Below the pieces are notes generated by a model, which had not been told where the DNA came from, did not search any database, and saw only the letters and a program-made list of their open reading frames with translations. DNA of 63,385 nt, filler included, from Stramenopiles sp. TOSAG23-3 (Eukaryota), in assembly GCA_900128585.1 (NCBI GenBank). It is 19 parts of 19 records of this genome, joined end to end, with 100 filler letters (N's around TTAATTAATTAA, not from the genome) between each part and the next. Parts side by side here need not be neighbours in the genome. Positions count along the whole stretch, not along the records: positions 36,812 to 40,049 come from LT644336.1; 18 more parts are not named here. One strand, 5' to 3'. Position numbers and translations under genes: made by a program. Position 1 is the first letter of the stretch, and each line of letters starts with the position of its first letter. Shown here in pieces: positions 3,259 to 51,482 of the stretch.

Positions 3259-3358
3259 NNNNNNNNNNNNNNNNNNNNNNNNNNNNNNNNNNNNNNNNNN
3301 NNTTAATTAATTAANNNNNNNNNNNNNNNNNNNNNNNNNNNNNNNNNNNNNNNNNNNN
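3259..3358. other. Artificial contig linker N44-TTAATTAATTAA-N44 (first of 18)
   Basis: The same 100-nt spacer, with stops in all six frames, recurs about every 3.35 kb. Confidence 0.97.
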
Positions 3359-16757: not shown

Positions 16758-16836
16758 TGATAGAATCGTCTTCTGTGAAAGGCTGGAAGGCCTCCCTTGA
16801 AAATCAGAAGAAGCAGAGAAATCGTTTGTACAGACC
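16758..16836. repeat. 79-bp inverted copy of the contig's other end (19924-20002), probable chimera
   Basis: Exact reverse complement; it joins STT3 at a GACC microhomology. Confidence 0.9.
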
Positions 16837-36710: not shown

Positions 36711-36841
36711 ANNNNNNNNNNNNNNNNNNNNNNNNNNNNNNNNNNNNNNNNNNNNTTAATTAATTAANNNNNNNNNNNNNNNNNNNNNNNNNNNNNNNNN
36801 NNNNNNNNNNNTCTTTCTTTCGACTCTTTCTTTCTTTCGAC

Positions 36842-37675: not shown

Positions 37676-39449
37676 ATGTCGGACCTCGCCGACGCGGCCT
37701 CCTCCGCGTCCTCCCCGGACGGCAAGTCTATCATCCGGGCGACCCGGCACTACGTCGACCGAATGCTCAAGGAAGTCTCCGGGATGAAGATCATGCTGCT
37801 CGACACGGAAACCACGGGGATCCTCTCCATGGTATACACCCAGACGCAGATCCTCTCCAAGCAGGTCTACCTCGTCGAGCACATGAAGAACACGGCCCAG
37901 CACGGCCGTATGATGCACCTCAAGGCGATCGTGTTCCTTCGCCCGACCCTCGCCAACGTCGAGCTCCTCAAGGCGGAGCTCGCGGACCCGCACTTCTCCC
38001 AGTACCACGTGTACTTCTCCAACGTCGTCCCGCAGGAGTACCTCGCCCAGGTCGCCAAGGCGGACGTCCACGAGGTCGTCGCGACCGTCCAGGAGTTCTA
38101 CGCGGACTTCTTCGCCGTGAACGCGGACACGTTCACCCTGAACCTCCCGGTGAGCCTGTCCCTGAGCCTCCCCAAGGACATGTGGGGCGGGGGCCAGGAG
38201 CGGAGCTTCGCCCGGGCCGCGGAGGGCGTCCTCGGTGTCCTCCTCTCCCTCAAGCTCAAGCCGACCATCCGGTACCAGGGGAGCAGCGACCTGGCCCGGG
38301 CCTTTGCCCGGAAGCTCCAGCAGAGCGTCCTGAGCGAGAGCGCCCTCTTTACCTTTCGGAGCGCGGCGGGCGGGGGCGGGCCCCCCCTCCTCCTCGTCCT
38401 CGACCGCCGGGACGACCCGATCACCCCCCTCCTCACCCAGTGGACCTACCAGGCCATGGTCCACGAGATGATCGGGGTCAACGACAACCGGGTCGACCTC
38501 TCCCGGGCCCCGGGGATCCGGAAGGACCTGAAGGAGGTCGTCCTCTCCCCCTCCGACGACGCCTTTTACCAGAAGAACATGTACGCGAACTTCGGGGACC
38601 TCGGGGTCGCCATCAAGGAGCTCCTGAACCGGTACCAGCGGGAGTTCAAGGACAACCAGAACCTGAACTCGATCGAGGACATGCAGAACTTCGTCGAGCG
38701 GTACCCGGAGTTCCGGGCCATGTCCACGAACGTCTCCAAGCACGTCGCCGTCGTCGGGGAGCTCTCCCGGCTCGTCGACCAGCACAAGATGATGGACGTC
38801 TCCCAGCTCGAGCAGGAGCTCGCCTGCCAGGACGACCACGGGGCGCAGTTCAAGGCCCTCCAGGAGATGCTCGGGAACCGGAACCTCGCGACCGTCGACG
38901 CCCTCCGCCTCGTCATGCTCTACACCCTCCACTACGAGACCAAGAGCGGGAACCACGTCGACGCCCTCAAGCAGATGCTCCGGGACCGGAACTGCGACCA
39001 GGTCGGCCTGCTGGACACGCTGCTCAAGTACGCCGGGGCCGGGAAGCGGGGGGGGGGACCTGTACGGGAACAAGTCCTTCATGGCCCAGCTCGGGAAGGG
39101 CCTCGCCGGGCTGAAAGGGGTCGAGAACGTCTACACCCAGCACGTCCCGTACTTTAGCGAGGTCATCGAGCAGGCCGCCAAGGGAAGGTTGAAGGACGGG
39201 AGCTACCCCGTAGTGAGCGGGGCGGGGGGCGGCCAGAAAGGGGCCAAGCACGTCGTCGTGTTCGTCCTCGGGGGGATCACCTACGAGGAGGCCGCCGCCG
39301 TGGCCCGGATGAACCAGGCCGCCGGGGCGAACGGGTGCAAGATCGTCCTCGGGGGGACCTTCATCCACAATAGCAAGAGCTTCTTGACCGAGCTGAACCG
39401 GTTGAAGGAGATCTACCAAGGGTACGGCGGCGGCGGGTTCGGGAGGTAG
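37676..39449 (+). CDS. VPS45: Sec1/Munc18 family protein Vps45; frameshift in G10 run at 39048-39057
   Basis: GMKIMLLD.ETT, HLKAIVFLRPT, DRRDDPITPLLTQWTYQAMVHE and NVSKHV; after the shift, GLKGVENVYTQH and FVLGGITYEEA. Removing one G restores RGGDLYGNKSF. Confidence 0.95.
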
Positions 39450-39754
39450 GTAGGGCGGAGCGATAGAGAGTGGTGACTGTGTGTATAGGTTTAAGAGGAA
39501 GTGGTTGGGTTTTGGAAAGGTTAGTAGGGTCTGTTTAGAAAGAGTACGTACTTAAAAATATATCCTCTACATACGCGTCGGATGGAGAGAGAGAGAGTAT
39601 AGAATATGCCTTTTACCATTTCGTAGTGTAATGGTTGTACTTCTTCCTTTCAACAGCAGAACAACAGGTATATTAGAATAATATATTATATATACTATAA
39701 TACGTACTCCCCTATCACAATATTACGTCTACAAGCCAATGTTATGTAACACAT

Positions 39755-39898
39755 GGCGGTATCGTCCAGTGGTTAGGTAAGTTTCATAAAATCCCAAAAT
39801 GATGACTTCTCAGTTCTCTAACATCTTAAAATCAATCTTCAATTTCAGGACGGCAGACTCTGAATCTGTAGACCCGGGTTCGAATCCCGGTACTGCCT
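39755..39898 (+). tRNA. tRNA-Gln(CUG), exons 39755-39776 and 39849-39898, with a 72-nt GT-AG intron between positions 22 and 23
   Basis: The spliced 72-mer folds fully: acceptor GGCGGTA/TACTGCC, D-stem GTCC/GGAC, anticodon stem GCAGA/TCTGT with loop CT-CTG-AA, T-stem CCGGG/CCCGG with TTCGAAT, and U73. A T-run terminator follows. Confidence 0.93.
39777..39848 (+). other. Spliceosomal-type (U2) intron inside the tRNA gene
   Basis: Starts GTAAGT, has CTAAC at 39818-39822 (branch A 27 nt before the end), a pyrimidine-rich 3' part, and ends TTTCAG. Confidence 0.85.
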
Positions 39899-39972
39899 TT
39901 ATTTTTTCCAAACGTAACAATGCTGTGTGATGTATTGTCTTTTCCGGACTAATTAAAAAACGTTATTCGATA

Positions 39973-39990
39973 CCCTAACCCTAACCCTAA
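39973..39990. repeat. (CCCTAA)3 telomere-type repeat
   Basis: CCCTAACCCTAACCCTAA is directly visible. Confidence 0.75.
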
Positions 39991-40149
39991 CTTGGGTGGA
40001 TCGAGTGATTACGGGTAGCAACATCCAACAGGCTTGGATTAAGAAGATTNNNNNNNNNNNNNNNNNNNNNNNNNNNNNNNNNNNNNNNNNNNNTTAATTA
40101 ATTAANNNNNNNNNNNNNNNNNNNNNNNNNNNNNNNNNNNNNNNNNNNN

Positions 40150-50604: not shown

Positions 50605-51482
50605 AAAAGATTATGAGTAAGTTTTTAAGAAGACAAGTTGTGAGGGTAAAATATGTTGTGTACACACACAAAATATAAATAATATTTTTTTTTTCCAAAA
50701 AATTATAATAATATATAATTAAGGGTTAACCCTATATACCCTAATAGACAAAATGCAGCGGCGCACAGAACCTGGGGAACGGGCCTAATCCCTACCTGTG
50801 TCTATGAAAAATTTCACCTATTAAATTTATACATCATCATCAATGATGAGGTCACAGCACAACAACTTCGAAGTTGTTGGAAGCAAAACCTCTTCTTCTA
50901 TTATACCCCGTTTTATAATACCTAAGTTTATACAGGTACGAAGACGGTATTGTACTTTGCACGATTAGTGCACAGGGGGGGGGGGGGGGGGGGGGCNNNN
51001 NNNNNNNNNNNNNNNNNNNNNNNNNNNNNNNNNNNNNNNNNNNNNNNNNNNNNNNNNNNNNNNNNNNNNNNNNNNNNNNNNNNNNNNNNNNNNGGGGGGG
51101 GGGGGGGGGGGGCGCCGAGGGGTCCCCCCCCCCCCCCCTGTTCACTAACCGCAAAAAGTACAATATTCATACATGATAGTACGGTAACAGGTACCGTACC
51201 GGTAGTCGGTAGTGCAGTATAATATAATACCAGTATATACCAGGTACCGAAAATAGTAGTAAACAAATAAAAATTGTTTGCGTGAGTACAACATTCAGCA
51301 GACTTCAATTTTCCACCTCCAGATTTCGTCAATGTGTTCAACATCTGTGGTGTAGTCAAAGGAACCGTGTCTGAATCAAGAAACGCATGGGCAGCAAGTG
51401 CGTGTGAGCGATCGTAGCAAGGCACGAAAACGACACGCTCCCTCCGGGGATACTCTCGCGAAGGTTCACCACCCCAACGAAA

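Follow-up and report, generated by a model that had tools for sequence, protein, structure and literature searches.

A tRNA-Gln(CUG) gene of an uncultured marine stramenopile with its D arm interrupted by a candidate spliceosomal intron

The stretch of DNA analysed here (the window, 63,385 bases) comes from Stramenopiles sp. TOSAG23-3 (assembly GCA_900128585.1) and carries, on the contig at 36812–40049, a split gene for the glutamine transfer RNA (tRNA) with the anticodon CUG, accompanied by simple repeats and a gene of the Vps45/Sec1 family. The two parts of this tRNA-Gln(CUG) gene are separated by an AT-rich insert located in the D arm between tRNA positions 22 and 23 (Table 1). This anatomy is directly visible in the sequence. 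Exon 2 provides a variable loop of 4 nt and a T at position 73, and the terminal CCA is not encoded. The internal A-box-like and B-box elements, which follow the consensus forms of these promoter elements, and the T6 run downstream are all present in the split gene.

Table 1. Position of the parts of the split tRNA-Gln(CUG) gene and of its protein-coding neighbour in the window
Feature	Coordinates	Strand	Remarks
Exon 1, tRNA positions 1–22	39755..39776	+	22 nt; acceptor 5′ strand, D-stem 5′ strand GTCC, D loop, A-box-like stretch 39762–39772
Insert (candidate intron) between tRNA positions 22 and 23	39777..39848	+	72 nt, AT-rich (A26 T25 C15 G6)
5′ splice-site consensus GTAAGT	39777..39782	+	preceded by exon bases TAG; sequence inspection
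Branch-point consensus CTAAC	39818..39822	+	branch A at 39821, 27 nt upstream of the final base of the intron
3′ splice site CAG	39846..39848	+	sequence inspection
Exon 2, tRNA positions 23–73	39849..39898	+	50 nt; D-stem 3′ strand GAC (after G22), anticodon arm, T arm, acceptor 3′ strand
Anticodon CTG	39860..39862	+	in exon 2
B box	39877..39887	+	in exon 2, T arm
3′ trailer	39899..39908	+	T6 run 39902–39907, resembling an RNA polymerase III terminator; sequence inspection
Vps45/Sec1-family coding sequence	37676..39449	+	intronless; neighbour gene, context only

Removal of the insert restores a complete tRNA. ARAGORN called a 72-base tRNA-Gln(ctg) on the joined exons in both settings used and made no tRNA call on the unspliced stretch in either of them. 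The cloverleaf is the minimum-energy fold of the joined RNA, with −29.8 kcal/mol as compared to −21.5 kcal/mol (standard deviation 3.1) for 500 shuffles (z = −2.6). It comprises an acceptor stem of 7 pairs including one G-U, the D stem GTCC/GGAC and a standard T loop, and all stems and conserved positions are intact. The unspliced RNA retains three of the four arms (acceptor, anticodon and T) and leaves the insert in the D loop; its minimum free energy of −32.8 kcal/mol (z = −1.0) is not lower than expected from shuffles. Throughout the window, ARAGORN found no tRNA, also when introns in the anticodon loop were permitted. Rfam at gathering scores returned no match to the unspliced DNA, and a relaxed search of 39500–40049 (E up to 10) gave five weak matches, none of them listed to the tRNA family; among these was a 14.6-bit match to the T arm of tmRNA, overlying one lower-scoring match of the same clan. 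A scan of the 63 kb for tRNA halves gave two matches, the second of which is AT-rich, lacks an A box and is spurious, leaving the split tRNA-Gln as the sole tRNA-like pair.

The insert itself has the features of a U2-type GT-AG intron, namely a GTRAGT donor, a CTRAY branch site about 10–40 nt upstream of the acceptor and a YAG acceptor. The sequence UAG/GUAAGU at the 5′ junction agrees at 8 of 9 positions with the U1 consensus, and CUAAC corresponds to the U2 branch consensus. The 26 nt downstream of the branch A contain 58% pyrimidines. Among 2,000,000 random 72-mers of the same composition, just one combined GTRAGT, CTRAY at 10–45 nt from the end and YAG, which corresponds to about 5e-7 per register. 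As AGG occurs at both junctions (39775–39777 and 39847–39849), the boundary of the insert is ambiguous over four registers, and the probability rises to about 2e-6 once these equivalent registers are allowed for. A chance origin of the set of splice signals is thereby excluded. When the whole window was scanned for segments with these motifs, four were found on the plus strand and none on the minus strand; apart from the insert, these are three segments situated in AT-rich DNA between genes or within a long open reading frame (ORF). No second copy of the insert exists in the window, where the best other match is 15 nt long, so that the multiple near-identical copies by which introners are recognised were not found there.

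A preliminary description of this locus had proposed the cloverleaf restored by excision, the U2-type donor, branch point and acceptor, and a gene overlooked by tRNA scanners. The coordinates that it gave for exons, insert, signals, boxes and terminator all proved correct in a sequence check, the fold and the ARAGORN call bear out the restored tRNA, the three signals (GTAAGT, CTAAC at 27 nt and CAG) are as it described them, and ARAGORN and Rfam are indeed silent on the unspliced DNA. Its use of the AGG at both junctions as evidence of insertion had to be abandoned: any GT..AG insert in an AG/G site produces this repeat automatically, and the repeat is for the same reason uninformative as a target-site duplication. 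Overall, the observation is confirmed and the interpretation supported in part.

Some other identities of the insert were considered and rejected. The stretch ATGATGA at 39799–39805 fits the box C consensus of C/D small RNAs; no CTGA accompanies it, and a box C/D RNA in the intron was dismissed. In the minimum-energy fold this stretch pairs with the region just 3′ of the 5′ splice site. Terminal inverted repeats of a transposon were not seen by eye in the insert. An intron belonging to the Vps45 mRNA was likewise discarded, as RNA contigs of Vps45 stop at 39479, 39518 and 39606, upstream of the tRNA. Nor does the tRNA region belong to an ORF, as none of at least 60 amino acids occurs beyond 39551.

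Independent metagenomic data revealed a second locus of this kind. The contigs aligned to 39000–40049 came from one DNA run (X3), which is a marine metagenome of a different study, and from three RNA runs (X10, X14 and X20). The organism itself or a very close strain is present in X3, where a 1,809-nt contig of depth 6.3 matches 39000–39674 with 2 other letters and 5 gap letters. Another X3 contig (record 8, 484 nt, depth 5.5) is identical to the window over 39755–39777 (23/23 aligned letters, with exon 1 at 22/22) and matches 39849–39907, i.e. exon 2 and the trailer, in 57 of 59 letters. The 71 letters that separate these two matches in the window are replaced by 69 others, and the 5′ flank of the contig is unlike that of the window. 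This contig is a second locus, either a paralogue or the gene of a close relative. At least two loci thus carry an insert of about 70–72 nt at the same site, with the exons conserved and both insert and flank diverged. Selection on the mature tRNA, combined with removal of the insert, would be expected to produce this pattern. A decaying dead copy or an assembly artefact hardly accounts for such a second locus, which argues against both.

An intronless joint of the two exons was not present in the X3 contigs, in which gaps are uninformative. One further X3 contig (record 9), aligned on 39850–39900, holds a tRNA-Gln-like gene without an intron; it differs at 5 of 51 bases, has a dissimilar 5′ half and presumably belongs to a different organism of that sample. 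Pattern searches yielded no additional genes. The exact 38-base pattern of exon 2 gave no match in viral, metagenome and prokaryote-genome contig collections, and the exact 23-base pattern of exon 1 gave none in viral contigs. Its single match in genome contigs (L003, 2717–2739, minus strand, Halorussus) was attributed to chance, and ARAGORN calls no tRNA there. A degenerate split pattern consisting of D loop, gap, anticodon loop and T loop matched twice in metagenomes; both matches were false, being two adjacent tRNA genes and an unrelated sequence.

From these observations, we favour, at about even chances, a working nuclear tRNA-Gln(CUG) gene with a U2-type GT-AG intron in its D arm, located between positions 22 and 23 and predicted to be removed by the spliceosome. 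That the split gene is functional appears likely to us. CAG codons are in use in the window, with 206 CAG as compared to 248 CAA among the glutamine codons of 22 ORFs of at least 300 amino acids (206 of 454) and 26 CAG and no CAA in the Vps45 gene, and the organism therefore needs a CUG decoder.

The split genes might instead be inactivated copies, generated when an intron-like or mobile element of 70 nt landed in the D loop of tRNA-Gln genes, with an intronless copy elsewhere supplying the tRNA. Non-canonical inserts in eukaryotic nuclear tRNA genes are mostly read as pseudogenes according to one review (PMC4090602), tRNA scanners give no call on the unspliced gene, X10, X14 and X20 hold no RNA contig of the locus and, as the search covered the window, an intronless copy could lie outside it. 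Nevertheless, we regard inactivation as unlikely. The exons are flawless, with every conserved position and all four stems intact, and so are the terminator and both box elements; moreover, the insert has no other copy in the window, as noted above. Neutral decay would strike the exons as much as the insert, and two independent insertions at one site are unlikely, whereas at the second locus the exons have been kept next to an unrelated 5′ flank and around a different insert. The undecayed exons had already been taken as an argument against a dead copy in the preliminary description, and the second locus strengthens this argument. An artefact of assembly or amplification would have to be sought in the fragmentary nature of the data: the window consists of 19 short contigs (about 3.2 kb) joined by linkers, the contig at 16758–20002 has a perfect 79-nt inverted repeat at its two ends, the neighbouring Vps45 gene contains a homopolymer frameshift, and the insert of the window is not covered by X3. 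Chimeric joins, however, do not place an insert of exactly 72 nt, equipped with three splice signals, between the halves of a perfect tRNA, and the same split architecture occurs in an independent metagenome contig. This explanation is therefore very improbable.

Removal of the insert by a protein endonuclease and ligase, be it TSEN or an unknown enzyme, via a non-standard bulge-helix-bulge (BHB) structure would leave the splice motifs fortuitous or serving some other purpose. In favour of this possibility, the nuclear tRNA introns treated in the accessible parts of two studies are all endonuclease substrates, including those in the D arm from Cyanidioschyzon merolae and from nucleomorphs; some of them have relaxed or helix-less motifs and some an unknown removal mechanism (PMC3728597, PMC4090602), and archaeal tRNA introns are known at position 22/23 (PMC4090602). 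We tested four registers in two geometries for a BHB or its relaxed hBH/HBh′ form, in which the two cut sites fall in 3-nt bulges separated by 4 bp, and a central helix of 4 base pairs was formed in none of the eight combinations; the best reached 3 of 4 pairs, including two G-U pairs, and lacked an outer or exon helix next to it. The preliminary description, which had set a BHB cut by TSEN against its own reading, is supported in this respect. The insert lies at 22/23 and not at 37/38, so the ruler mode of the eukaryotic enzyme does not apply, and because a BHB is absent as well, neither of the two known modes by which the endonuclease finds its sites is applicable. With its 72 nt, the insert also far exceeds the 3–24 nt given for non-canonical introns of nucleomorphs (PMC4090602, accessible text). 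Furthermore, an endonuclease leaves the joint occurrence of GTAAGT, CTAAC at 27 nt and CAG without explanation. Taken together, we consider excision by a protein enzyme to be improbable.

Several observations weigh against removal by the spliceosome. tRNAs have a tight fold and do not normally serve as substrates of the spliceosome. The alignment of the second locus (record 8) breaks at 39777 and resumes at 39849, and its insert is accordingly not GT..AG in the register of the window; as a conjecture, a GT..AG shifted by one base would fit the alignment ends. The intron sequence of the window (39778–39848) is itself uncovered by X3. None of the three metatranscriptome runs (X10, X14 and X20) contains an RNA contig over 39700–39910, which proves nothing either way, as assembled metatranscriptomes seldom contain tRNAs. 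The search for tRNA-Gln genes was confined to the 63 kb of the window, and an intronless copy may exist elsewhere in the genome. In three scans of about 25 protein genes in the window, no convincing spliceosomal intron was found that could serve as a reference for the signals and length of host introns. The genes appear to be single-exon: a single ORF of BBS5 spans profile positions 1–332 of 334, and the three repeats of a mitochondrial carrier likewise lie together in one ORF. For comparison, compact genomes with 0.36–0.56 introns per gene are reported for one group of uncultured marine stramenopiles (PMC5269757). Finally, in the accessible text of a 2023 review of tRNA biology, the sole mention of the stem ‘spliceosom’ contrasts the two splicing systems and gives no exception (PMC10275265).

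From the anatomy of the gene, we infer its transcription, the polymerase, the removal of the intron and the machinery responsible as follows. With both box elements intact and the T6 run preserved, RNA polymerase III (Pol III) would be the simplest candidate for transcribing the gene, directed by the A- and B-box-like elements and ending at the T6 run. T runs in the insert do not exceed three, and Pol III would encounter no four-T run in the intron to stop it. As a sign of Pol III transcription, this absence was rejected as uninformative, since 50% of shuffles also lack TTTT. A host transcript of Pol II may alternatively be the source of the split tRNA precursor. In the precursor, the intron would be accommodated as an enlarged D loop, and the acceptor, anticodon and T arms would fold. 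U1 would then pair with UAG/GUAAGU and U2 with CUAAC, using A39821 as the branch nucleotide, and the intron would exit as a lariat. Ligation of G22 to G23 would rebuild the D stem GUCC/GGAC, and RNase P, RNase Z and CCA addition would complete the tRNA. Regarding the origin of the intron, reverse splicing into an abundant RNA at an AG/G site or an insertion of the introner type is plausible.

The surroundings of the gene point to the identity of the host. The window is composed of 19 contigs of 3,231–3,258 bases each, arranged in descending order of length and chained by linkers of the form N44-TTAATTAATTAA-N44 (e.g. 3259–3358 and 40050–40149); adjacent contigs are not neighbours in the genome. 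The tRNA-like element lies about 300 bases past the stop codon of the Vps45 gene. The closest named relatives of the Vps45 protein are stramenopiles with at most 52% identity (Hondaea, a Thraustochytrium, an Ochromonas, Ectocarpus and oomycetes), and unnamed environmental proteins match it at 77–82% identity. The contig at 36812–40049 recurs in marine and seawater metagenomes, where 20 of the 24 public runs listed hold part of it and 8 hold at least half of its words. Owing to the relatives of Vps45 and this recurrence, the host is an uncultured marine stramenopile.

The Vps45-like gene contains a one-base frameshift in a run of G near 39048 (39040–39056), where an independent metagenome contig is one base shorter at 39048; this is probably an assembly error rather than the mark of a broken gene. 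Its third-position GC content of 0.90 compares with 0.40–0.83 for the longest ORFs of the other 18 contigs, and the ORF is flanked by very AT-rich DNA that contains long repeats of the types (CTT)n and (GAAA)n. Three units of the telomere-type repeat CCCTAA are located at 39973–39990, 75 bases 3′ of the tRNA gene and about 60 bases before the contig end, and constitute the sole such run in the window. The inverted repeat at both ends of the contig at 16758–20002 is typical of chimeric or palindromic assembly or of an amplification artefact. In addition, a run of 97 N at 50997–51093 is bordered on either side by runs of about 19 G followed by C.

A tRNA gene with a spliceosomal intron was not encountered in the literature search, which lay outside subscription journals and supplements, where a prior description may exist; the phrase ‘spliceosomal introns in tRNA’ occurred in none of the papers covered. 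In the accessible text of two reviews and one research paper on disrupted tRNA genes (PMC4090602, PMC4033280 and PMC3728597), the stem ‘spliceosom’ does not occur, and ectopic introns are treated as endonuclease or BHB substrates. A 2026 preprint, in its available part, treats ‘non-spliceosomal tRNA introns’ as the norm.

The closest parallels are found in other non-coding RNAs. Spliceosomal introns are listed in U6, U2, U5 and U1 small nuclear RNA (snRNA) genes and in ribosomal RNA (rRNA) genes, with tRNA not on the list as given in the accessible text (PMC5855946). The introns of U6 snRNA in fission yeast and other fungi, as well as those of U1, U2 and U5 snRNA and rRNA, resemble the insert described here in combining GT-AG ends and a branch site in a gene for a small, structured and abundant non-coding RNA. 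U6 is moreover a Pol III gene with internal promoter elements. The introns of this whole group are thought to have been gained by reverse splicing; in the same source, determinants such as RNA abundance are suggested to govern intron gain in non-coding RNAs (PMC5855946). Pol III transcripts can thus undergo spliceosomal splicing, as that of the fission-yeast U6 gene does. In contrast to these cases, the host RNA is here a tRNA, neither a component of the spliceosome nor close to its active site, and splicing is predicted from sequence.

The ectopic tRNA introns of the C. merolae nucleus, of cryptophyte and chlorarachniophyte nucleomorphs and of Archaea (including those at 22/23) share with the present gene an interrupted D arm, exons that rejoin to a cloverleaf, and being missed by scanners, as far as the accessible texts describe them (PMC3728597, PMC4090602). 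They differ in being defined by a BHB or a relaxed form of it and cut by an endonuclease, whereas here a BHB is absent, spliceosomal signals are present and the insert is longer than in the nucleomorph cases. Introners of marine protists and fungi, frequent in aquatic protists, are likewise short inserts, with splice sites that they either carry along or generate. Unlike members of these families, which are defined by many near-identical copies, the insert stands alone in the window, and the X3 locus has an insert of another sequence. In plastids, the trnG-UCC gene carries in its D stem a group II intron, a lariat-forming, self-folding ribozyme of several hundred bases belonging to the family thought to be ancestral to spliceosomal introns. 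This intron is organellar; the 72-nt insert, in contrast, is too short to accommodate group II domains, and the gene that it interrupts neighbours a nuclear Vps45 gene.

Textbook splicing of tRNA is catalysed by proteins, an endonuclease and a ligase, and is strictly separated from spliceosomal splicing. Conceivably, though with somewhat less than an even chance, the spliceosome matures a nuclear tRNA in this stramenopile lineage, with tRNA-Gln(CUG) genes at no fewer than two loci that would require removal of a GT-AG intron of the D arm as a lariat before folding of the tRNA; this would be the first such tRNA and the representative of a class unseen by current tRNA finders. If true, a spliceosome-dependent tRNA would break the division between the two systems and would add tRNA to snRNA and rRNA among the non-coding RNAs with spliceosomal introns. 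Because the RNA concerned is abundant and structured, it would also be a natural example of intron gain with relevance to the model of reverse splicing. Counts of tRNA genes in protists may then be too low, because scanners permit introns only at 37/38 or with BHB motifs.
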